NCBI GenBank assembly: GCA_041738395.1
Contig: JBGSPW010000025.1
Span: forward strand, 4,100-68,099
Source: Thermoflexales bacterium
GTDB lineage: Bacteria > Chloroflexota > Anaerolineae > Fen-1058
Direction: 5' to 3'
Length of the DNA stretch: 64,000 nucleotides
Shown here: positions 28,832-63,055 of the stretch, one piece after another
Position numbering within the stretch: position 1 is the stretch's first letter
Layout: every line of letters begins with the position of its first letter
Program-made: the position numbers and the translations under genes
The notes under the pieces: model-generated
The model's input: only the letters and a program-made list of their open reading frames with translations
Told to the model about the DNA's origin: nothing
The model's database searches: none

Positions 28832-31372
28832 TCAAAACAACGTCAACTGTTTATCCGACATCGCCACCTTCCGAACTGGCAACCTGCGTGGCACAGGCAT
28901 CAGCTGCTCTCGCACTGCGGCCAACTCAGCGAGCGTCTTCAACTGCGGACTCGCCAGCGTGGGCGATCCAAGCGGCGACGGCGTCACCGCCGGCCTATTC
29001 CCGATCGAGAAGATGCCCTCGGCGCGACCGATGTTGAGCTTGCCCATCGCTTTGCGCACGAGATCGCTCAGCAGATCGCCATCCTCGAGTTCATCGACCA
29101 ACGCGCCGCCCACGGCATCACCATAGAAGAGCTGCGCGGCCAGCATCTTGTGGCCGAGCAAGTCCAGCGCGCTTTCTTCGAGCGTGTCCTGATACACGGG
29201 GAAGAACAACTTCACTCGCTTGGGCGCCCCCGGCCGATATAGCCGACGCATGAACTGCCAAAGCACATAGAGGCTCCACTCAAACTCGAAGAGAATCGCT
29301 GTGTTGAACATGGTCAGGTTGAGGCCAACCTCAACCAAACGCGCATTGGTCAGCAACACGTCAAACTCGTGCGCGTGGTTCTTGATCCACGTGGCCCGTT
29401 TGGCCGGAGCCAACGAGGGACGCAGGATGCCGGCGCGCAGTCCGGAGACTTCCAACGCTTGCACGAGACGCGGTTGGATATCGCGTGTTCCGGTCTGACG
29501 CACGCCGATCAAAGTTTTGTATCCTTGATCGCGTTCGATCAGACACTGATGTGCCGTCCACATTTCTTTCGGCAGCCATTCACCTGGGCCGACGATTGGC
29601 GGTAGCGTCAGCACCGATTCTTCGCGCCGCACGGCAAAGCGACCGCGGCCGGAGACACGCGGGTGAAAGATCACATGCTCACCCCGGAACATCGCATCAG
29701 GCCGATTCAGCGCCGTGTTGAGCCAGACGCTGATCGCGCCTTTGCCATCCTCTTCCTGTTTCCGCGCCATCGCCCAGCGGAACAAGCCTTCCGCTTCATC
29801 GGGCTGTCCGTCGGCTTGCTTCATTTGCGCCTGCATGGCATCTGTCAGATCCAGACGCACGATCTCTTCCGAATAGTCGGGAAGCGGCAGCCCCACATCG
29901 TTCAGGCTGCTGAAGGTGCAATATTTCAAGCCGATACCCGCGATGGCCGGCGAGATGCCCGGCATCTCCGACACGGAGAGATATTCACGCGTGCCGGTGT
30001 AGGCGCCGTCTTCGGGAATCGCTTTCGGGTCCTCAACGTAGAACGTATTTTTGAGCAGGCCATACTTCTCGACCCAGCGGCGTTCATCACTGTAGCCGAA
30101 CTCACGACGCACTTCACCCGACAGGCGATGCAGTAGCCAAAAGATTGACGTACTGTACCCGCCGAACAACGTCCCAGTTAAACCGACCGTATAGCGACAG
30201 GCGTTGTTGAGCACCGTCAACGCCCAACCCACACCGGTGCCTTTCGCCTTACATTTGTGCAACTCATCAACGCCTAGCGCTCCGAAGAACTTCTTAACTC
30301 GTTTGGCGACCGAAGCGGCCGGCATGCGTCGCAAATCACTCACCTCAAACAGTGGCGCACCGCACACATAGCGCTCGCCATGTTCATCGGTGACGAGTGC
30401 GACGTGCTTCCCGCGTTCTTCGTCCCACACGCGGCGCGGCTGCGGAGCCTGACAGTAGCGGCGGTGTAAGCCCACCCACTCAACGGCTTGACCGGGTGTG
30501 ATGATTTTGTCCGCTAACGGAGAACCATCTTCATCATCGTATTCTTCCACGACCACAGCGCCACACGTGGGGCAAGCACAGACCTCAACGCTCCGCGTTT
30601 GAAGTCGATTGTGCTCATCCCGATACTTCTGATGCACGTGGCGCGTCACCATCGCCGGGACGCGGCCCGATCCGAGTTTCGCCGTCTCATAGGAGACGAT
30701 CGCAAAACTCTTTTCCGGCAGCGCGCCGCTGCGATAATCGGCGACAAACTGTAACAGCGAGTAGCGATTGATCATCTCCCGCGCATGTTCTTCTTCGCGG
30801 GGCAGATCGAGGCCCAGCCACAGATAGCCGCCGATGCGCGCATCGAGTAGATTCGTGTTCTGCGCGTGTGGCCGCCGGCGCGGGGGATTCTTCCATGCCG
30901 CTGTCAGCGTAAAGCGCAACGGGATCAACGCCTGTTTGATCCGCAGACCAAAGCGTGCGCGGAGATCCTTGTCTTTGATGCGGCGCGTGATCTGCCGCAA
31001 CTTATCCATGAACTCGTCAGGTGCTAACCCTTCAAATTCATCGTCGCGCAGATATTCATCCGCAGCCTTGAGCTCCAGCAGGAACTGCTGATGCTCTTCC
31101 TCAGTTTGTGACTGCGTTCGACTGACGTGGCTAAAGAACTGTTGACGCAACCACGCGCCCACTTTCACCGGCTTTGGTGCGGGCTTCGCCCCGATTGTGA
31201 TGACCTTGCTGGCTGCACCGGGAATCACTTCCGCAATCTCTTTGGGCCAGTTCTCAACCCCGGTCACCACACCCGGACCCACGATCAACGCAGGATAAGC
31301 CGTGGCTTGCCGACCGCGACGAGATTGCGCCACGCGCATGTATTCGACGATCGCCAGGAAGATGGTGCTTTT
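28832..31372 (-). CDS. exon 2 of methyltransferase-helicase fusion gene: SF2/SNF2-like helicase part
   Basis: The in-frame peptide upstream of the annotated Met reads KSTIFLAIVEY with no RBS or start. It joins exon 1 (..AEMGSG) to form Walker A GSGKST. Motif II VDELHKCK. C-terminal helicase block LLTNARLVEVGLNLT..RRLYRPG. Confidence 0.8.
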   Translation of the reverse strand, partial: KSTIFLAIVEYMRVAQSRRGRQATAYPALIVGPGVVTGVENWPKEIAEVIPGAASKVITIGAKPAPKPVKVGAWLRQQFFSHVSRTQSQTEEEHQQFLLELKAADEYLRDDEFEGLAPDEFMDKLRQITRRIKDKDLRARFGLRIKQALIPLRFTLTAAWKNPPRRRPHAQNTNLLDARIGGYLWLGLDLPREEEHAREMINRYSLLQFVADYRSGALPEKSFAIVSYETAKLGSGRVPAMVTRHVHQKYRDEHNRLQTRSVEVCACPTCGAVVVEEYDDEDGSPLADKIITPGQAVEWVGLHRRYCQAPQPRRVWDEERGKHVALVTDEHGERYVCGAPLFEVSDLRRMPAASVAKRVKKFFGALGVDELHKCKAKGTGVGWALTVLNNACRYTVGLTGTLFGGYSTSIFWLLHRLSGEVRREFGYSDERRWVEKYGLLKNTFYVEDPKAIPEDGAYTGTREYLSVSEMPGISPAIAGIGLKYCTFSSLNDVGLPLPDYSEEIVRLDLTDAMQAQMKQADGQPDEAEGLFRWAMARKQEEDGKGAISVWLNTALNRPDAMFRGEHVIFHPRVSGRGRFAVRREESVLTLPPIVGPGEWLPKEMWTAHQCLIERDQGYKTLIGVRQTGTRDIQPRLVQALEVSGLRAGILRPSLAPAKRATWIKNHAHEFDVLLTNARLVEVGLNLTMFNTAILFEFEWSLYVLWQFMRRLYRPGAPKRVKLFFPVYQDTLEESALDLLGHKMLAAQLFYGDAVGGALVDELEDGDLLSDLVRKAMGKLNIGRAEGIFSIGNRPAVTPSPLGSPTLASPQLKTLAELAAVREQLMPVPRRLPVRKVAMSDKQLTLF

Positions 31373-32269
31373 GTTATAGTCGGTCAGGGCGCATCTCCTA
31401 GCCTTTCGACTAGGGTGGATTCCCTTTTCCGCTACTGCCGAACCGTGCGTGACACTTTCGCGTCACACGGCTCTAGGCATGGGCGGGGTTATTCCCCCGT
31501 GCATCACGTAGACTTCAACTCGATAGCTGTTCGTTGGTATCGTCTATCGGTATTTGCCCTCGCTTGTGCATAAAGCATCTGCTGTATCCTCGACACTTCA
31601 CGGTCTACGTCGGTCATAGACTGCTCCTTGTTTCAAGGGGCTATCGTGTTGAAGGCTTCCATCGATGCTGTTCCCATGCTGGACACCCTTCGCCTTGAAG
31701 TGGGAGTTACCCCACTGCCTTTGACTACTACGGTGTCCTCCGCCCCCAGATTGCCACGTCAGACGCAACTATCCCAGCCCTAACACGGAGGGCGGGTCAA
31801 TCTGGGTTCCCACGTTCATCGCGTATGTCTCTACCTGGACTTAGACTCTGTCTATACGCCGGCGGTTCTATCCGGTCGATTACACCTCTGTATCGACCGG
31901 CCATGCACTTCCCATCGGGTGAAGGTAAGTGCAAGCCTCTCATCAAGCGGTGCGCTGAGAGATAACCGCGTTCCCCAACCATTCCTAACATTTAGCGGTC
32001 GGGTTAATGGTAACGACGCCTCGACGACAGTTCGTCATCCTAGTCATATCCAGGCACGGCTGGCAGCCTCATCGCATGTTAGGATACTGCGACTCTGCTT
32101 ACTGTTGTCCCTAGAGCTTCACACCGGTTGTTGTTCCTGGTCCCCAGCATGTCTAGGTAGCCGTGTGCCCCTGTGAGGTCAGGGGCCAGTGGATTCGTCG
32201 ATGCTCTGGCGAATCCGCCGCAGTTGTAGTCTGCGGCTAACTCATCATACGCCACGCTTCGTGGCACAC
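31373..32269 (-). mobile_element. ORF-less group II intron (about 897 nt)
   Basis: 5' end GUGUG (GUGYG consensus) directly after the GSG codons. Domain V at about 31440..31473: GAGCCGUGUGACGC-GAAA-GUGUCACGCACGGUUC, with AGC triad, AC bulge and GAAA loop. 3' end ..CUAUAAC (AY). Removal restores the frame and the Walker A motif. Confidence 0.85.
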
Positions 32270-35231: not shown

Positions 35232-35345
35232 GGTGTTTTCTCCGATCAGCACAGACACTGGCCGGACATGGAACAATCCCCATCCTCTGGTGGGATGGTG
35301 CCAATCCCAGCACTTGAGGACAACTGGAATTGTCGGGGACTACGA

Positions 35346-35463
35346 GGTAGATACAGGGTGAGGCACGTGGTGAGCAGCAGAGGAACAACCGCGCTGCTCA
35401 AGGTAGATGCAGACTCAATACTCATCAAAGAGGATGAGCAATGAGAACGAAAGAATGAAGGGG
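35346..35463 (-). repeat. structured intergenic element, copy A
   Basis: GGTAGATACAGGGTGAGGCACGTGGTGA box + hairpin GAGCAGC/GCTGCTC + GGTAGATGCAG box + hairpin CTCATC/GATGAG. Homologous to 47111.., 49021.. and 57899... Confidence 0.8.
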
Positions 35464-35546
35464 ATAAGAGCAGCTGGCGAAGAAGATAACTCCTTCGCCA
35501 GAGAAACAACATTCAGCAACCGTCACGCTCGGGCCACCGGTCGGAT

Positions 35547-36719
35547 TCAGATGGACAGAGGCATCTGAGTCACGCTCGGCGCCAGAACCTTGCACCGGTT
35601 CAGGATGGTTTCGGCAATACCGCGAAACTCGCTGTGCCGGATCACGGTGGCTTTGAGATGATACGTCGCGCCAATCTCCAGTTGCGGATCGGCCGACGCA
35701 AACCACGCGGCCCGATTGCCACTTGCCGGATCGACGAACTTATACAGCACCGTGACGCCCTCCGGTTTCGGGATCTCGGTGCGATTAAGCACCAGCAGCG
35801 TCACGGTCAAGCGCTCGCTGACCTGGCCGAAATGGCGGCTCGGTCGATCGGTCAACTGCCGTTCGACTGCGCGTTGCGCCGCTGACTGATGCGCCTGCAA
35901 CAACGACGCAGCCAGACCGGTCTCGCCATAGGTGATCGTGTCTTGTTGCGCGATCTCGTGCAGGCGTCGCTCGTAATCACTGAGATCACGTTCTTCCTGC
36001 GCAAGTTGTCGCGCCCACGCGATGGCCGCTTGAGCCGTTTCCCTGGAAACTACATCGGGCGTCACATCGTGTACCGCGAACAGCGCATCGAGCGCCAGTT
36101 CGGAGGTGGGCGGCTTGCCGGTCGTCTCCGCTTGTTTGCGGCTGACCCAGCCGTGCAGCGCGATCACGCGGGCAACTTGCGCCAGATACTTATCGAGCCG
36201 GTACGCATAGCGATCGGCGCTGAAGACATCGATCTCATAGCCCTGGGCCTGCCGCGTCGCAGCATCCGCGGCGATCAGGCGGTCGGCATACTGCACGGTC
36301 GCCGGGCCAGTCGCGCCCAGCACCGCCGCGACACAGCCTCGACCGATTTGGAGACAGGCGCCTGTGAGCAAGTTGCGCAGCACCAGCAGATCGCTGGCGT
36401 GAGCGGCGCAATGTCCGCAGGCGGGTGGCGCATGTAGAAACCGTTCCGGCACGCCGCAATCGGGAACCGCGTTGACCTGCACCTGACCGCGCGCCTCGAA
36501 CTGCAGCGCAGCGATCACCGCCCAACCATTCACCTCCGGGCGATCGCCTTTCAGTTCGACGGTCACCTGATCAGTGATGACGCCCTGAGCACTCTCACTG
36601 GTGGTGCGTTTCACGGCCAGCAACGAGAACAGGCGATTCACCGCAACGGCTTGCTGGATCAGAGCGCCGACTTTTGCTTCCAGCGCGGGCAGCGCTGCAT
36701 GGCAGATGATGTATTGCAT
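35547..36719 (-). CDS. hypothetical protein (390 aa)
   Basis: AAGGAGG SD precedes the ATG at 36719. Cys/His cluster CGVPERFLHAPPACGHC. Confidence 0.6.
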   Translation of the reverse strand: MQYIICHAALPALEAKVGALIQQAVAVNRLFSLLAVKRTTSESAQGVITDQVTVELKGDRPEVNGWAVIAALQFEARGQVQVNAVPDCGVPERFLHAPPACGHCAAHASDLLVLRNLLTGACLQIGRGCVAAVLGATGPATVQYADRLIAADAATRQAQGYEIDVFSADRYAYRLDKYLAQVARVIALHGWVSRKQAETTGKPPTSELALDALFAVHDVTPDVVSRETAQAAIAWARQLAQEERDLSDYERRLHEIAQQDTITYGETGLAASLLQAHQSAAQRAVERQLTDRPSRHFGQVSERLTVTLLVLNRTEIPKPEGVTVLYKFVDPASGNRAAWFASADPQLEIGATYHLKATVIRHSEFRGIAETILNRCKVLAPSVTQMPLSI

Positions 36720-36789
36720 AGAAACCTCCTTGGTCCAATCTCCCCTCCAGCGCAACTTTGCACGCCGGAGGGGAGACTGTGGTGTTTCG

Positions 36790-37140
36790 CTATTCCTCTT
36801 CCGCGACGAGATACCAGACCGGCCGAGACTTACCCCGCCGGCGTGGCCGCCAGACTTCGTGTTCGACGCCACGGCGGCGAATGACCCCGTAGAATCGGGA
36901 CTCGGTCAGTCGCAACTGCCGTACCGTACACGTGAACCAACACGTCGTAATCTGGATCGTTTGGGCGGATAGGTGTGAGACGCACGTCTGATGGATCGTC
37001 GGGGTGCTGCCCCGGCGCTCATCAGCAGCGGCTTCTTTCTTGGCATCGCCCCGATCAAGGTAGATGAGCGAACGCCACTGCGGAGATTCGGTCAGAGTCA
37101 CGTAGTAGGCGGGAACGCCCATGAGGACGTTGGCTGCCAT
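36790..37140 (-). CDS. hypothetical protein (116 aa)
   Basis: Starts 1 nt after the stop of the upstream 1215-aa gene. Confidence 0.45.
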   Translation of the reverse strand: MAANVLMGVPAYYVTLTESPQWRSLIYLDRGDAKKEAAADERRGSTPTIHQTCVSHLSAQTIQITTCWFTCTVRQLRLTESRFYGVIRRRGVEHEVWRPRRRGKSRPVWYLVAEEE

Positions 37141-42444: not shown

Positions 42445-43664
42445 TACGCACCTCCGCTCGACATCAGGTCGAGGATCTGGTTGACAATGGCATTGGCCTC
42501 GTTCGCAACCGCCGTAAGCCGCGCTGCATACGCCCGGGCATCGGGTGACGCCGCGAGTTTCTGCGCCCGCGCGACCAGCTTGCGAGCCTTCCCGGCGATC
42601 TCGGCGCGTTCCTGCAACTTCGCGCCTTGCAGCCCGCCGGCCTTGACTTTGAGATCAGCCAACAGCGCCTCGCAGTCCAGCACATCGCTGGCGGCCGGAT
42701 CGGTCAGCGCGAGCACCGTGTTGCGGATGCTCGTTTCCTCGTCCGGCTCGCTCCACAACGTCCAGCGCGCGACGCCCAGATGACGCGGCGCCGGCGCTTC
42801 ATCGTACAGCAGCGCGTAGGCCATCGCCAGTTTGAGCGTCTTCTTCCAGCGGCGATCGCTGATGCGCCCGACGCCGATCTGCCGCCACAGTTCCACCACT
42901 TTCTCGGTCACTTCGGGCGGCGGATTCAACGCCAGCGCTTCCGCCGCCTGCCCGATCGTGCGCAGGTCAGTGGCCGTCAACACCGGCGTCACCGGATTCG
43001 CTGTGCTCGTGCCAACCGAGGTCAGCAGCGCGCGAAAGTCGTCGGGGTCGTGGACGTAGTCCAGGCTCACCCGCACCAAGAAACGATCGTAGGCGGCGCG
43101 CAGGGCCTTATCGTCCGGCACTTCGTTCGACGCGGCGACCGCCGAGATCAACGGGATCGGCAGATCATCGTCGCCATCCGTCACCAGGCGCTCTTCCAGA
43201 CCATCGAGCAGCATGTTTGCCACTTGCGGCGAGGCCTTCCAGACCTCATCGAGGAAAGCGATCTCCGACGTAGCAAACTTGCTCCACTTGCGCCGCCATT
43301 CACCGTTGCGCACGGCGGCCGGATCGAGCGGGCCGACAATGTCTTCCCGCGTGATGTCCGGATTGAGGACGATGCGGAAAAACTTGCCGCCGATCCCGCT
43401 GGCAAAGCTGCGCAGCAACGACGACTTGGCCGTGCCCGGAGGGCCGTACACAAAGACGTGCTCGTTGGCCGCCAGCGCGACCGCCACGGCCTCGGCCATT
43501 TCGGCGCGGGCCACGAACTGCGCTGCGACCTGATCGCGCAGTCCACGCAGGGCAGCAGTGGTCGCCGACAAGGGCGATCCTGCTACAAGTGCCGCCCAGG
43601 CCAGTGGGCCGGGTATCGTCCTCGGCTCATCCATCACGTCGACTTCAGTCTTCTTCTTAGCCAT
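42444..43664 (-). CDS. MoxR-like AAA+ ATPase
   Basis: Walker A VYGPPGTAKSSL, Walker B IAFLDEVWKASP. GGAGG SD precedes the ATG at 43664. Confidence 0.75.
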   Translation of the reverse strand: MAKKKTEVDVMDEPRTIPGPLAWAALVAGSPLSATTAALRGLRDQVAAQFVARAEMAEAVAVALAANEHVFVYGPPGTAKSSLLRSFASGIGGKFFRIVLNPDITREDIVGPLDPAAVRNGEWRRKWSKFATSEIAFLDEVWKASPQVANMLLDGLEERLVTDGDDDLPIPLISAVAASNEVPDDKALRAAYDRFLVRVSLDYVHDPDDFRALLTSVGTSTANPVTPVLTATDLRTIGQAAEALALNPPPEVTEKVVELWRQIGVGRISDRRWKKTLKLAMAYALLYDEAPAPRHLGVARWTLWSEPDEETSIRNTVLALTDPAASDVLDCEALLADLKVKAGGLQGAKLQERAEIAGKARKLVARAQKLAASPDARAYAARLTAVANEANAIVNQILDLMSSGGA

Positions 43665-43671
43665 AGAGTCC

Positions 43672-43720
43672 TCCAGAAAGCCGGCCCGCTGAGTGAATCT
43701 CAACTGGCCGGCGCATCGTG
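43672..43720 (-). repeat. 48-nt stem-loop repeat, copy 1, immediately upstream of the MoxR RBS
   Basis: Near identical to 44055..44102. Stem GCCGGCC/GGCCGGC followed by TTTCT. Confidence 0.7.
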
Positions 43721-43767: not shown

Positions 43768-44046
43768 TCAAGCCGTGAGTGCGTCCACGTCTTCCAGCGT
43801 TTCGTCGGCGTGCAACAATACGATCGTGTTATCTTCCGACGCTGGCTCCAGGATGCGATCACGCACTCGCAAGAGCAGAGTGCCGTCCTCCGTCAGATCG
43901 ATGTTGATGGTCTTGCCGGCCATCCCATTATGATCAAGGACGTTGAGTTGAATGCCATCTTCCGCCGTGATAAGTTCCAGCGCGGCTTCCGCTTTCAGGT
44001 ATGGCACGGCCAACGGAATCGTCATGCCATTGATGGTGAATTGCAT
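43768..44046 (-). CDS. hypothetical protein (92 aa)
   Basis: ORF from MQFTINGM. The upstream extension in the ORF track is encoded by the hairpin repeat. Confidence 0.45.
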   Translation of the reverse strand: MQFTINGMTIPLAVPYLKAEAALELITAEDGIQLNVLDHNGMAGKTINIDLTEDGTLLLRVRDRILEPASEDNTIVLLHADETLEDVDALTA

Positions 44047-44054
44047 CGTGGCCG

Positions 44055-44102
44055 CCAGAAAGCCGGCCTGCTGAGTGAATCTCAACCGGCCGGCGCATGG
44101 TG
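44055..44102 (-). repeat. 48-nt stem-loop repeat, copy 2
   Basis: ccagaaagccggcctgctgagtgaatctcaaccggccggcgcatggtg, versus copy 1. Confidence 0.7.
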
Positions 44103-46316: not shown

Positions 46317-47009
46317 CTAACTAAAACCTAAGCCCCGCTCTTTCAGCGAGACCCAGCGGGCTTGCCCGATCACAAGGTGATCGAGCACCTCGATATCGAG
46401 CAGTTGACCGGCACTGATCATGCCGCGCGTAACGCTCACGTCTTCGGGGCTGGGCTCCGGATCGCCTGATGGGTGATTGTGGAAAACAATCACCGCCGGG
46501 GCGTTACGCCGGATCGCTTCACGAAACACCTCGCCATTCCGCACGATGGACGAGTGGACGTTGCCGCGATAGATCGTGTCGATAGCCAGAATGCGGTTAC
46601 GCGTATCCAACGACATCACGCGCAACTCTTCCTGTTCCAACACGCCCATTTCGCCTAACAGCAGATCAGCGGCATCGCTCGGCGCGCGAATCTGCCGGCG
46701 TTCGGCGCCGCTACCCAGGTGAGCGCGGCGGCCCAACTCAATGGCGGCTTGCAACGCCGCCACCCGGTTCGGTCCCAGACCTTTGATGATGCCCAGATCC
46801 GCGACCGGCGCACGACACAGATCGTCGATGGTCGGATAGGTGGCCAGCACGCGCAAAGCCGTATCGGCGTCGCCAAGGACGGCGCCCAGCAGTTCGACCA
46901 GGGCCACATTCTTCGCGCCGGATTGTGTGACGCGCGTGGCCGGGGTCTCTCGTAACACGCGCAGCGAGGGCTGCGCCGACGGCAAGTTGCCGAATTGCAG
47001 TTGTCCCAT
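46317..47009 (-). CDS. radC: RadC-family JAB/MPN domain protein
   Basis: HhH-like N-terminus, JAMM motif VFHNHPSGDPEPSPED. GGAGG SD. Confidence 0.85.
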   Translation of the reverse strand: MGQLQFGNLPSAQPSLRVLRETPATRVTQSGAKNVALVELLGAVLGDADTALRVLATYPTIDDLCRAPVADLGIIKGLGPNRVAALQAAIELGRRAHLGSGAERRQIRAPSDAADLLLGEMGVLEQEELRVMSLDTRNRILAIDTIYRGNVHSSIVRNGEVFREAIRRNAPAVIVFHNHPSGDPEPSPEDVSVTRGMISAGQLLDIEVLDHLVIGQARWVSLKERGLGFS

Positions 47010-47110
47010 AGGTCCTCCTGTTCAGTGACATGGTGTTTTGTTGGTCGATGACGATCGGGATCGTCGGCATGGTGTTGGTCGAAAAGTGGAACGATTTCGA
47101 CCGCAACAGA

Positions 47111-47215
47111 GGTAGATACAGGGTGAGGCACGTGGTGAGCATCAGAGGAACAACCGCGCTGCTCGAGGTAGAGAAAAGACTCCAGCCCATTCAAAAAGAA
47201 TGAGCCATGAGACAA
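47111..47215 (-). repeat. structured intergenic element, copy B
   Basis: Same CACGTG box. Hairpins GAGCATC/GCTGCTC and CATTC/GAATG. Confidence 0.8.
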
Positions 47216-47339
47216 CTGGTTAAGAAAGATTGACCGATGGTCAGAAGTTGACCCGCACTCCGGGGCCAGGCTGGCTTTACCACGTTACCAGCCTGGCCCG
47301 CTCAAAGGCTAAAGGAGTTTTTACGGAACTCATTCGACC

Positions 47340-47480
47340 TTACCCGCGGTGACAATACGTACTCATCCGATCGTTGATCGGCTGCTGCTGCGCGGCGCGG
47401 CTGAATCCGATCAGCCAGGCAACCGCGCCTGTCACCAGCAGGCCTCCACCAAGGACTAAAGCGATTAACTCGACACCCAT
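47340..47480 (-). CDS. 46-aa single-TM peptide (below the ORF-track cutoff)
   Basis: Hand translation gives MGVELIALVLGGGLLVTGAVAWLIGF... AAAGGAG SD. Confidence 0.4.
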   Translation of the reverse strand: MGVELIALVLGGGLLVTGAVAWLIGFSRAAQQQPINDRMSTYCHRG

Positions 47481-47494
47481 GCTGCTCCTTTCTA

Positions 47495-47553
47495 TCTGAA
47501 AAGTTGAACCTACCTCCCTGTGTCAATAGCGCGCATTGACACAGGGAGGTAGG
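47495..47553 (-). terminator. rho-independent terminator (19-bp perfect stem + TTCAACTTTTCAG)
   Basis: CCTACCTCCCTGTGTCAAT / ATTGACACAGGGAGGTAGG. A second 12-bp hairpin lies at about 47601..47641. Confidence 0.65.
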
Positions 47554-47648
47554 CTCAACCAGTAGACAAACAAGAGCATGAGTTGCCGGACAGACGCTTG
47601 TGCCACAACCCGTCGGTGTTGTTTGTACCAACGGGTTGTGGCATTCAG

Positions 47649-47885
47649 CTAGTGCATGCGCCGACGCCATTCACCAGGTCGCGCGGGGATAGCCGTCTGC
47701 TCGAAGAAGACGACCAACTTTTCCGCGCGTCCGGCGCCGAACGTCTGCGCCATCATGTGTTGCATCGTCGCCGGTGAAGCGGGGTGTTCCCACTTGAACA
47801 CGTGGAACCACTCTCGTTCCGCGGGCGACAAGGTCGCCAGGGACAGCGCGGCAGGCTGATCCAGCTGTTGGCCCGTGTCCGCCAT
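47649..47885 (-). CDS. hypothetical protein (78 aa)
   Basis: Internal Met chosen to avoid overlap with 47963..48244. Confidence 0.35.
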   Translation of the reverse strand: MADTGQQLDQPAALSLATLSPAEREWFHVFKWEHPASPATMQHMMAQTFGAGRAEKLVVFFEQTAIPARPGEWRRRMH

Positions 47886-48872: not shown

Positions 48873-49020
48873 GGTGTGTTCTCCTGGAACATGGTATTGA
48901 GTGACGGCAAACGGCCGCCGCGCACTGCATCGAGAGCATGGTGTTGACTGCGGTGATCGCTTGACCACCGGACATGGCGCGGACGGCAGGCGGGGAGGCG
49001 CTGCCGACCAAACAACCAGA

Positions 49021-49203
49021 GGTCGATTCAGAGTGAGGCACGTGAGGTCACTTGAAAAAGTGACGAGGTGGATACAAACCGAGAGGTGGATACAGGGTGA
49101 AGCACGTGAGGGTCAATGTGAAACACAAGACCCAGGTAGAGAAAAAACTCAATGCTCATCAAAAAATGAGCAAAGAGAACGAGAATAAAGAAAGAGGAAA
49201 AGG
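49021..49203 (-). repeat. structured intergenic element, copy C (box duplicated)
   Basis: Two (G)AGTGA(G/A)GCACGTGAGG boxes. Hairpins GTCACTT/AAGTGAC and GCTCAT/ATGAGC. Confidence 0.75.
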
Positions 49204-49404
49204 GAACTACACCAGGGGACTGTCTGGCCCCTGGTGTAGTCAAACTGCGAGACGGCTAGTTCGGCGAGATGACTACAGAATTCATGCGGTCAGCTTCGCC
49301 CGACGGCACTGGCGTAGCCGCACTGGCAACACTCCCAGTATGCAAACGTCCTGTCTGTGTTGTAGACCGGACGCATTTCATGGTGAGCTTGATCGTGTTC
49401 CATC

Positions 49405-57208: not shown

Positions 57209-57751
57209 CTACTGGCCAGTCGTAATCGCTGGGACTGGCAACGGCTCCTCAACGAGATAAGCGCCCCGCTGGAGCCGATCGAGCAGCACACGCAAGTCAT
57301 GGAGCTCAGACTGATACGCGTACGCTTCACCTTCGCCGGCATCGACGACCGACGAAGCGTCATCAAGCGCGCTCAGCACTCCAGTCAGTTTCTCGACCAG
57401 TGCCTGGCGGGACAGGGTGCCATACACCACGCGCAACAGATCTTCCAGCGTGAGGCTGGTCTGGCTCATGAAGCCGCTGATCGCGCCATAAACCTCTGGG
57501 CCACCATCCGCCCAAATGACAGGTAGATCAGGCCAGGGCTTCGCGCTGGCGCGCCGGTCGGCAAACACCTCGTCCGCCAGATCAGCCGACGCGCCAACAA
57601 CGAGATAGACTTGCGCACCCTGCGGCCTGGCCGCGATGATCAACGGGTGCTCGGGGTGCAACTGCCCCCACGCATGGACAAACTCGGCCAGCGCTTCGTC
57701 CGGCTGGTCAGCCTCGACATTGATGGGATAGAAAACCAACGGTCTCTTCAT
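57209..57751 (-). CDS. hypothetical protein (180 aa)
   Basis: AAAGGAG SD. First gene after repeat copy D. Confidence 0.55.
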   Translation of the reverse strand: MKRPLVFYPINVEADQPDEALAEFVHAWGQLHPEHPLIIAARPQGAQVYLVVGASADLADEVFADRRASAKPWPDLPVIWADGGPEVYGAISGFMSQTSLTLEDLLRVVYGTLSRQALVEKLTGVLSALDDASSVVDAGEGEAYAYQSELHDLRVLLDRLQRGAYLVEEPLPVPAITTGQ

Positions 57752-57898
57752 AGGGCTCCTTTCCTGCTCGCTTACGCGAGCGCATCGTTATTTTTCGGCA
57801 AGAGCACAGGGCGCCAGAAACAGCATGGCGCGCATCGTGAGGTGGATCGACATGGTGCCGGCCAGTGGCAAAGAACCGCTGACCGTCGGAAACGACGA

Positions 57899-58003
57899 GA
57901 TAGATACAGGGTGAGGCACGTGGTGAGCATCGAGGATGCTCAAGGTAGATGCAGACTCAATACTCATCAAAGAGGATGAACAATGAGAACGAAAGAATGA
58001 AGG
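57899..58003 (-). repeat. structured intergenic element, copy D
   Basis: Nearly identical to copy A, except hairpin 1 is GAGCATC-gag-GATGCTC (compensated, short loop). Confidence 0.8.
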
Positions 58004-58091
58004 GCGACGGCCAGTGCGCTGTTTCCACAGAAACACCCGCCGGGCGTCAGCCACCGCGCAGCGGTTATCCCGTGACCAATGAAGAGATTGG

Positions 58092-62427: not shown

Positions 62428-62943
62428 CTAAGCGCCCGCCGCGTAAGTCAGCGGATGTTCAGCCAGAAACGCAGCGCGCGCCTCCGAAGAGACAAACGCC
62501 GTGCGGACTTCCGCATGATAGGCGGCGGCGTCTGGCGGCAAACTCGTCAACCACTTTTCCCGCGCCGCCCGCAAGCGGGTGACGCGATACTGGAAGTAGT
62601 GCGTGCTGTTGCTGAGGCACTCCCAACGGCCATCCACAACGCGTGTGTGATCGTTACAGATCGGGCACGGCCCCGTGGTGTACTTGAGGGCGCTGCCATC
62701 CGGCGCCGGCGGCCCGCCCGCTTTGAGATAAACCTTGACGGCGTGCTTACCGCGGCAATTGGTCGCACCGCAATTGCAGGTGCGATCCTTCAAGACCAGG
62801 TGAAAACGCGGCGTGCGACGCGGGCCAAGATCGACTTGATACCCGCCGGTGATCAACATGATGATTGGATAGTGCGGCGGTAACGCTACGGGCGGCCAGA
62901 CCGTCCGTCCAGTGGACTTCGTCGGTGTCAGTATCTGGAGCAT
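62428..62943 (-). CDS. Cys/His-rich (SWIM-like) zinc-finger protein
   Basis: CNCGATNCRGKH and CPICN..C motifs. AGGAGG SD precedes the ATG at 62943. Confidence 0.5.
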   Translation of the reverse strand: MLQILTPTKSTGRTVWPPVALPPHYPIIMLITGGYQVDLGPRRTPRFHLVLKDRTCNCGATNCRGKHAVKVYLKAGGPPAPDGSALKYTTGPCPICNDHTRVVDGRWECLSNSTHYFQYRVTRLRAAREKWLTSLPPDAAAYHAEVRTAFVSSEARAAFLAEHPLTYAAGA

Positions 62944-63055
62944 AGGAACCTCCTGAACATCGTAGTGAAACGGCAAAAGCCGGAGTTAAACCACCTCCGG
63001 CTTTCGGGTACATAGTGCGAATCAGATGTTGGCGTTCTAGTCCAAGACAGATCGT

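Follow-up and report, generated by a model that had tools for sequence, protein, structure and literature searches.

The window, that is, the whole 64,000-nt stretch of DNA analysed here, carries a family of structured intergenic elements that precede gene blocks of a mobile element. Their architecture is distinct, as it combines two covarying hairpins, a co-evolving direct repeat, a strand bias and an upstream terminator over four to six successive operons. The element is uncatalogued: Rfam and the plasmid and phage collections do not contain it, and it occurs only in a single clade of integrative elements of Chloroflexi. Structured intergenic elements of this kind, forming a family with covarying hairpins and lying upstream of gene blocks, had been proposed by a model that saw the letters of the DNA (henceforth the sequence-only reading), and the present analysis bears out this proposal. 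We tentatively regard the element as a shared cis-regulatory leader or junction of sense-strand RNA, on which one trans-acting factor would dock, and place this reading somewhat short of an even chance. The well-supported structure marks a whole set of operons with DNA-handling and probable anti-defence genes, and could reveal how mobile elements switch establishment genes without canonical promoters. To our knowledge, gene regulation in the mobile elements of Chloroflexi has hardly been described.

A search for the box GATWCAGRGTGARGCACGTG with up to two mismatches found five boxes on the plus strand, at 35350, 47115, 49025, 49089 and 57903. None is expected by chance (100 shuffles), and a repeat search recovered the same families, so that the four copies proposed earlier stand at their coordinates. 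There are five boxes in four elements because one of them, copy C, consists of two tandem modules. Since all genes from 28.8 to 64 kb are on the minus strand, the elements are read in gene sense hereafter. An element of approximately 110 bases then comprises, in order, a pyrimidine block (ending in TTCATTCTTTCGTT), hairpin 2, a linker carrying direct repeat 1 (CTGCATCTACCTT), hairpin 1 and a 28-nt box, ACCACGTGCCTCACCCTGTATCTACCTC, which terminates in direct repeat 2. Hairpin 2 is composed of an outer helix CUCA/UGAG, a U·U mismatch or bulge and an inner helix of 7–9 bp (approximately −15 kcal/mol as RNA), and is preceded at a distance of 2–3 nt by a near-invariant pyrimidine-G step. Hairpin 1 has a stem of 5–8 bp and a loop of 3–18 nt, and is flanked on both sides by the direct repeat CTGYATCYACCTY; in the window, this 13-mer is confined to the elements.

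Copy A spans positions 35344–35463 (minus strand, as do all parts of the four copies and their upstream hairpins). According to the alignments, it begins with the pyrimidine block CCCCTTCATTCTTTCGTT (35446–35463), of which the near-invariant YG-TT end lies directly before hairpin 2 (35414–35445; outer CUCA/UGAG, U·U mismatch, inner UGCUCAUC/GAUGAGUA). Repeat 1 (35400–35412), hairpin 1 (35372–35399; GAGCAGC, a 14-nt loop and GCTGCTC) and the box (35344–35371, including repeat 2 at 35344–35356) follow. A GC-rich hairpin with a 12-bp stem, which was both read and folded, occupies 35474–35501, 3' of the stop codon of the gene at 35547–36872, and its pyrimidine-rich tail enters the element. Copy B (47109–47229) lies upstream of the radC-like gene at 46317–47009 and comprises hairpin 2 (47180–47211), repeat 1 (47165–47177), hairpin 1 (47137–47164) and the box (47109–47136); it is preceded by a GC-rich hairpin with perfect 12-bp arms (47263–47299) and a second, small hairpin (47231–47243). 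In copy C (49019–49195), the unit of repeat, hairpin 1 and box is duplicated in tandem. Its 5' half contains hairpin 2 (49148–49177), repeat 1 (49133–49144), hairpin 1a (49110–49133) and box a (49083–49109), and its second module contains an extra repeat (49065–49077), hairpin 1b (49047–49064) and box b (49019–49046). The terminator-like hairpin upstream of copy C (49206–49240) has perfect 13-bp arms followed by UUCCCUUUUCCUCUUUCUUU. Copy D (57897–58005), upstream of the gene at 57209–57751, comprises hairpin 2 (57956–57987), repeat 1 (57942–57954), hairpin 1 (57925–57941; 7 bp with a 3-nt loop) and the box (57897–57924).

The distance from the end of the element to the next start codon is 113 or 146 nt for copy A, 100 nt for B, 147 nt for C and 146 nt for D, in agreement with the 90–150 nt given by the sequence-only reading. 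Other details of that reading needed amendment. Hairpin 1 was said to keep its pairing while changing in sequence, and the covariation does hold, but copy B has a G/A mismatch (GAGCAGC/GATGCTC). Hairpin 2 covaries as proposed but had been described too short, as the 4-bp outer helix is continued by the inner one, and copy C, proposed as a single element, has two tandem units of hairpin 1 and box behind a single hairpin 2. The CACGTG core, which that reading emphasised, is not universal. It is CACATG in one copy (L003 325; related loci are given by their L numbers) and absent in L021 and L025 6891; for these reasons, and as only 6 bp are palindromic, we also rejected CACGTG as a parS site or palindromic operator.

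The two direct repeats read ATCTACCT in the window and ATCCACGT at both positions in L026. As the motif alters jointly at both positions, one co-evolving recognition factor is suspected. No antisense partner of the motif was found in the window. L013/L019 are without hairpin 1, and L021 and L025 6891 are without a part of the box, indicating that not all parts of the element are essential.

Plus-strand defence genes occupy 1–28 kb of the window, and the minus-strand arm runs from 28.8 to 64 kb. From 64 kb downward, the arm starts with the end of a Rad52-like gene, followed by the genes for SSB, a Zn-finger protein and a 678-aa ParB, and then by element D. A block of unknown genes, including one for an HATPase protein, separates element D from element C, and four small genes separate element C from element B. 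After element B come RadC, DUF6744, MoxR, VWA, a 1215-aa methyltransferase and a 441-aa protein, and after element A DUF6908, a DUF6094 methyltransferase and a helicase. These blocks are multi-gene operons of 2–12 kb. The blocks preceded by a copy in relatives include those of a 73-aa protein with the Rad52-like protein and SSB, of a beta-clamp, of RadC and of DUF6744, and a tyrosine integrase is encoded near the first copy in relatives, which marks this as an integrative element. The Rad52-like operon of a related metagenome-assembled genome (MAG) is also headed by a copy, and thus the window very probably carries another copy just beyond 64 kb. The gene set resembles those of leading or establishment regions (SSB, ParB, RadC and methyltransferases). 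Neither the window nor 28 loci yielded a relaxase, T4SS or oriT, a rolling-circle Rep or primase was likewise not recognised in the window and related loci, and the element-bearing loci showed no capsid or terminase gene.

A covariance-model search, as suggested by the sequence-only reading, found 25 full-length copies and three half-modules in the window and eight related loci, all in Anaerolineae/Thermoflexales elements. The model was built from 12 close copies, a second model added no copies, and 16 further loci had been fetched through homologues of ParB and the Rad52-like protein. Diverged copies were detected in L013, L016 (three), L019/L020, L021/L022, L023/L024, L025 (three) and L026 (four). 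The element was not found in the distant ParB relatives L014 and L015 (phage-like), nor in L027/L028. All of the copies are intergenic, in gene sense and ahead of gene blocks. In an exact-pattern scan of 185,579 genomes, the box matched only one Anaerolineae MAG (from a fen); it also matched fen metagenomes, and was not found in viral contigs. Neither megablast nor blastn yielded a match among 72,556 plasmids or in phages, and tblastn searches of the plasmids and phages with the DUF6908 and DUF6744 proteins returned almost nothing. No relevant Rfam match (radC, STAXI and Chloroflexi-1 included) was obtained over the elements at the gathering threshold or E ≤ 10.

Besides the element, a non-coding stretch of approximately 330 nt was noticed in L013 (1352–1700), L019 (9001–9348) and L023 (1272–1580). 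These sequences are 84–94% identical, rich in hairpins, with a strong terminator-like hairpin at the end, and lie between a gene for a 257–291-aa protein and the first copy of the element. They gave no Rfam match and could represent a small RNA gene or an origin.

A repeat of this kind might be selfish or passive, such as a MITE- or REP-like sequence, or a module boundary kept by recombination, without any regulatory role. The number and position of copies do differ between relatives; for instance, the RadC and DUF6744 blocks are separated by a copy in L026 but not in the window. Furthermore, the variants of hairpin 1 differ at orthologous sites: copy A (35372–35399) has the long-loop form shared with copy B, while its orthologue in the MAG (L002, 5396–5412) has the 3-nt-loop form of copy D. 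Such swapped variants suggest the exchange of segments between copies of the element. Nevertheless, we consider a purely passive repeat very unlikely. The copies in the window are restricted to the 35–58 kb arm, always in gene sense and behind a terminator, no terminal inverted repeats or target duplications accompany them, and the genome-wide scan hit the single related MAG alone. A generic genome-wide REP repeat, which the sequence-only reading had named among the findings that would together speak against its proposal, is not what we found. The compensatory changes described below also show selection on the structure. An integron attC-like site was rejected as well. A single long imperfect hairpin, conserved 7-nt cores at the ends and one site per cassette are characteristic of attC sites, whereas the element has two separate hairpins and long conserved unpaired stretches and precedes multi-gene blocks of 2–12 kb.

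The covariation was assessed in an alignment of 28 model-based matches. The alignment was fitted to the covariance model, which favours the structure, yet the effect is large: standard pairs fill 91.8% of the paired cells, compared with 30–46% when the partners are slid by 1–3 columns. Thirteen of the 17 pairs are altered on both sides, and none of 500 shuffles reached any of the observed covariation measures. The pairs are thus kept by compensatory changes across homologues, as is required of a structured RNA, and the earlier claim of covariation became much stronger with the relatives added. The inner stem of hairpin 2 is wholly different in L013 (ACGUGCGA/UCGCGCGU), L016, L025 (GCGCUUC/GAGGCGC) and L026 (UGCGAGU/ACUCGCA), and a C-G pair of the outer helix is replaced by U-A in L021. 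Compensatory changes extend into the leader past the element (e.g., CCGGCCAG/CTGACCGG versus CCGGTTAG/CTAACCGG).

The two strands can be distinguished by the non-Watson-Crick pairs. We counted unique stems in a hairpin scan that penalises every non-Watson-Crick pair equally, where a transition in a Watson-Crick pair gives G·T or A·C with equal prior. On the gene-sense strand, the stems contain eight G·T, no A·C and two other such pairs. The presence of G·T and the lack of A·C identify the gene-sense strand as the one under structural selection.

This asymmetry bears directly on one of the functions suggested by the sequence-only reading, namely a promoter of the Frpo/ssi type that works as folded single-stranded DNA (ssDNA). 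In Frpo, the transferred template strand forms a long stem-loop that rebuilds canonical −35 and −10 sequences (PMC9849209), and leading genes would be transcribed before synthesis of the complementary strand. The leading-region-like gene set speaks for this possibility, and so does the arrangement of the copies, as near-identical non-coding repeats, Frpo1 and Frpo2, head establishment-type operons (ssb and others) in one orientation in the leading region of F (PMC9849209). Folding of a single strand is essential in both cases. Unlike in Frpo, however, there are two short hairpins and no pair of hexamers, and the strand that folds is the gene-sense, non-template one. The template (plus) strand folds only into local hairpins of 13 bp or less, without a long stem holding −35 and −10, and all eight wobble pairs would become A·C mismatches on it. 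Neither sequence similarity to Frpo, nor any match among the 72,556 plasmids, nor conjugation genes were seen. As the folding strand is gene-sense, it cannot be the template for the downstream genes, and we reject the Frpo-type promoter, which we regard as extremely improbable. Leading-region-like genes preceded by hairpins are by themselves no sign of an F-type ssDNA promoter.

The gene-sense strand of the element is also unusual in composition, with 31% C, 38% U, 16% G and 15% A against a background of 29, 19, 31 and 21%, respectively. It is therefore G-poor and 69% pyrimidine (background, 48%), which leaves the linkers free of pairing. In a double-stranded binding site, there would be no reason for one strand to be biased in this way, and the bias is counted for an RNA leader. 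Hairpin 2, despite stem sequences that are unrelated to each other, is predicted to have a stability of approximately −14 to −16 kcal/mol as RNA in most copies (full range, −9.8 to −16.4), compared with −3.2 to −10.9 kcal/mol with DNA parameters. The greater uniformity as RNA is a weak pointer to RNA. The sequence-only reading had offered a cis-regulatory RNA leader common to the operons as an alternative, and it is this alternative that the strand asymmetry, the pyrimidine-rich sense strand and the uniform stability of hairpin 2 tentatively favour.

The same observations remain compatible with sense-strand ssDNA, because G·T is also the best-tolerated mismatch in DNA hairpins. The element could then be a priming site for the complementary strand, similar to sso or ssi, or another signal used during single-strand transfer or replication, in which SSB would bind to the pyrimidine tracts and leave the hairpins uncovered. 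SSB prefers pyrimidine-rich DNA, and several ssi signals are present in F and related plasmids. A defined folding strand and a constant orientation suit this alternative, as do the proteins for handling ssDNA (the element's own SSB, the Rad52-like annealing protein and, in relatives, the beta clamp), and both hairpins are stable with DNA parameters too (−2.3 to −10.9 kcal/mol). The element further resembles ssoA/ssoU, ICEBs1 sso1 and G4-type signals in being orientation-dependent, folded, intergenic and on one defined strand of a mobile element. The sso elements are, however, extensively base-paired over 150–200 nt and bear the RSB/CS-6 signatures, while most of the conserved bases are unpaired here and the location is tied to operon starts. 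Priming sites need no strict place behind terminators and ahead of long structured leaders. As the window and loci have no recognisable relaxase, T4SS, rolling-circle Rep or primase, and as hairpin 2 is far more uniform in stability as RNA than as DNA, we judge an ssDNA element to be quite unlikely. An oriT/nic site, suggested by a loose resemblance to the RP4 nic region, was likewise rejected, as five to six direct copies occur and no relaxase was found.

The position of the elements relative to transcription was examined in 20 copies, nearly all of which have a GC-rich hairpin, mostly with a U-rich tail, directly upstream. These hairpins also occur at the "first" copies that have no co-directional gene just upstream, and such an arrangement points to insulation from incoming transcription and to a start within or just before the element. 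If upstream termination is efficient, hairpin 2 would be transcribed only from a start in the pyrimidine block of approximately 20 nt or by read-through. No convincing promoter was identified in that block. A/T-rich, −10-like hexamers are located 2–7 nt upstream of the pyrimidine-G step, with variable spacing and no −35, and a start at this step, which we mention as a lead only, would make hairpin 2 a 5'-terminal stem-loop. In a terminator scan, hairpin 2 of copies B and C passed and that of copies A and D failed; the base of its stem is A/U-rich and the tails are mixed in U and C. The separate upstream hairpins look like better terminators than hairpin 2.

A canonical promoter is absent. Scans with the sigma-70 consensus found no hexamer pair in the four intergenic regions of the window, and a relaxed scan (at least 8 of 12 matches) from −120 to +200 of the 20 copies found nothing at a consistent position, for a lineage (Anaerolineae) of which the promoter rules are not established. 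Several individual candidates were also rejected. The −35 of TTGATG-N17-TACCTT coincides with a covarying arm of hairpin 2, L025 and L026 lack it, and the −10 is without its final T in copies B and C. A combination of TATCTA in repeat 2 (as −10) with a −35 located in the 3' arm of hairpin 1 fails because several copies have lost the A at position 2 and because L021 and L025 6891 do not keep the spacing. A sigma-54 site on the plus strand (GGCACG-N4-GAGCA) fits only the copies with a GAGCA arm, fails in both modules of copy C and points in the wrong direction. Hairpin 1 of copy D (7-bp stem, 3-nt loop) recalls the N4-type hairpin promoter; the other copies have loops of 14–18 nt, and there is no gene for a giant virion polymerase.

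The element could alternatively be a double-stranded cassette made of a non-canonical promoter, an element-specific factor and repeats that serve as repressor or activator operators, where the upstream hairpins and hairpin 2 would be mere terminators or insulators against incoming transcription. The terminator-like hairpins before nearly every copy make a separate start for each operon plausible, and the element is the sole conserved sequence between terminator and gene. The direct repeats change jointly between elements, as operators would, and the tandem duplication in copy C resembles tandem promoters or operators. A precedent is found in p576 of Bacillus pumilus, in which at least four establishment or anti-restriction operons share an upstream arrangement with short direct repeats bound by one element-encoded regulator, Reg576, four establishment-gene promoters having dual direct heptamers; one p576 promoter also has leader hairpins (PMC6294495). 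Several operons with a conserved upstream arrangement of direct repeats are common to both systems, but p576 has sigma-A promoters and adjacent duplex heptamers, whereas the element has no canonical promoter, a covarying hairpin between the repeats and a pyrimidine-biased strand. The family as a whole shows no conserved −35/−10 pair of fixed spacing. In L013, L016 5734 and L026 18807, the −10-like TATCYA of repeat 2 is without its A; −35-like positions fall inside covarying hairpin arms, and the distance from hairpin 1 to the box varies. The half-sites of hairpin 1, being 3 to 18 nt apart, are unfit for a dimer operator, and neither wobbles of the G·T type only, together with covariation, nor a pyrimidine content of 69% is expected of protein-binding duplex DNA. 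We thus regard the promoter/operator cassette as unlikely, albeit a serious alternative.

Returning to the RNA leader, we propose that the element, which heads every operon of one arm of the Anaerolineae integrative element, would work as folded gene-sense RNA. The strong terminator-type hairpin just before each copy may insulate it from upstream transcription. The two hairpins, free in sequence and kept in pairing, would hold open the G-poor, pyrimidine-rich single-stranded stretches, which carry the motif YATCYACSU in two copies (four in copy C) alongside the conserved sequence at the hairpin base, GUUCUCA...UGAGU. One trans-acting factor may dock on these motifs; a single factor is proposed on the grounds that, from one element to another, both occurrences of the motif change in concert. 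At the entrance of the operon, the putative factor would decide whether the polymerase continues or stops, and/or the hairpins would stabilise the transcript, so that all operons could be switched together. We leave the output undecided among terminator read-through, attenuation and stabilisation of the transcript, the tentative weight given above applying to the leader reading as a whole. PDB sequence searches of three conserved small proteins returned nothing, and no candidate for the trans-acting factor was identified. The conserved Zn-finger protein of the first operon was considered for this role as well, but a relative devoid of the element also encodes it. A bolder version, which we hold to be rather improbable, is a relay: the folded sense RNA (the hairpin base and YATCYACSU) would load the factor or act directly on the polymerase, which would read through the terminator at the end of the operon to the next copy. 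If true, more than 35 kb of a Chloroflexi mobile element would be transcribed as a cascade that is ordered and all-or-none.

The antiterminators of lambda (nut), HK022 (put) and rrn operons resemble the element as cis-acting RNAs near the start of units that contain terminators, and as a hairpin of free sequence adjoining conserved, single-stranded, pyrimidine-rich boxes; a single long rrn unit also contains the signal more than once. The element departs from them in that GUUCUCAU is only loosely similar to boxA, and this likeness was discarded as weak, half of GUUCUCAU being paired. Unlike in nut, put and rrn, the hairpin loops show no conservation, neither an N-like nor a Q-like protein was found, and there are 4–6 copies per element rather than two.

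Among the known structured motifs, the radC motif is placed in the 5' regions of radC and of DNA-manipulation genes. Both radC (RF01754) and STAXI (RF01728) share with the present element the position of a conserved structured motif beside radC, ssb and antirestriction genes of mobile elements. In kind, the element can also be grouped with those promoter regions of establishment genes that mark a regulon. Nonetheless, neither the radC nor the STAXI model matches the window at the gathering threshold or E ≤ 10. The architectures differ as well, STAXI being a repeated pseudoknot, and the phyla of the two motifs are Proteobacteria/Enterobacteriales, as opposed to Chloroflexi here. In the literature, the radC motif is listed among conserved structured motifs, and STAXI, often repeated, is found near genes for Ssb, topoisomerase, antirestriction proteins and integrase, with its action as RNA or ssDNA being debated (PMC2864571).

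Some genes around the copies deserve separate description. The plus-strand defence island (9–27922) encodes a DruE/DrmA-like helicase with an MrfA Zn domain, an SNF2 helicase of the DpdE/DrmD type (E = 6e-271 to DpdE) and a DrmMI/type IIG-like methylase. It further contains two tandem 3-kb STAND/TPR paralogues (84–87% identical) and genes for a 1463-aa TPR-PIN protein, an NB-ARC NTPase and a TumE toxin-like protein. The Zn-finger protein of the first operon (62428–62976, minus strand) is conserved, with 171–182 aa, a SWIM-like CxCx4Cx3H motif and a second, zinc-ribbon-like motif (CPIC...WEC...H), and has no sequence match in Pfam or PDB; it is also present in L027, a relative without the element. 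A remnant of a group II intron (31373–32125, minus strand) lies between the gene for the DUF6094 methyltransferase, which ends at 32237, and that for the helicase, which starts at 31339. Rfam domains V/VI match at 31373–31475 with 57 bits, the intron-encoded protein is reduced to a 38-codon stub (MTDVDREVSRIQQMLYAQARANTDRRYQ...), and a possible GUGUG 5' end is located near 32125. An ORF-less intron is one possibility, and the remnant might interrupt a single large methylase-helicase gene.

The leaders downstream of the copies contain a further motif, ACACCATG, which occurs 12 times on the minus strand and once on the plus strand of the window (minus-strand positions include 35236, 40853, 47036, 47075, 48249, 48507, 48526, 48877, 48944, 58932 and 61648). 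One or two of these are found in the leader downstream of each element of the window, three in the leader after L003 325, and others before other genes; typically, a hairpin, a Shine-Dalgarno sequence and the real start follow. The ATG of the motif is not conserved as a start, as the frames differ and the motif is CACGCTG in L021 and ACACCACG in L026, and thus ACACCATG looks like a nucleic-acid signal of the leader rather than the start of an ORF. Two very long, near-perfect inverted repeats, 47503–47559 (25-nt arms) and 47601–47643 (17-nt arms), immediately precede what is likely a short gene with its start near 47480. Both fall within an ORF (47302–47670) that, given its low third-position GC, is probably not real. 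The first inverted repeat contains CCTACCTCC/GGAGGTAGG and CCCTGT/ACAGGG, echoing the repeat and the box of the element. Finally, a 59-nt sequence is repeated with 88% identity at 43662–43720 and 44044–44102. In gene sense, it is composed of CACGATG, a GC-rich hairpin, GGAGG and ATG, and is a duplicated translation-start module in the same style as the ACACCATG leaders.
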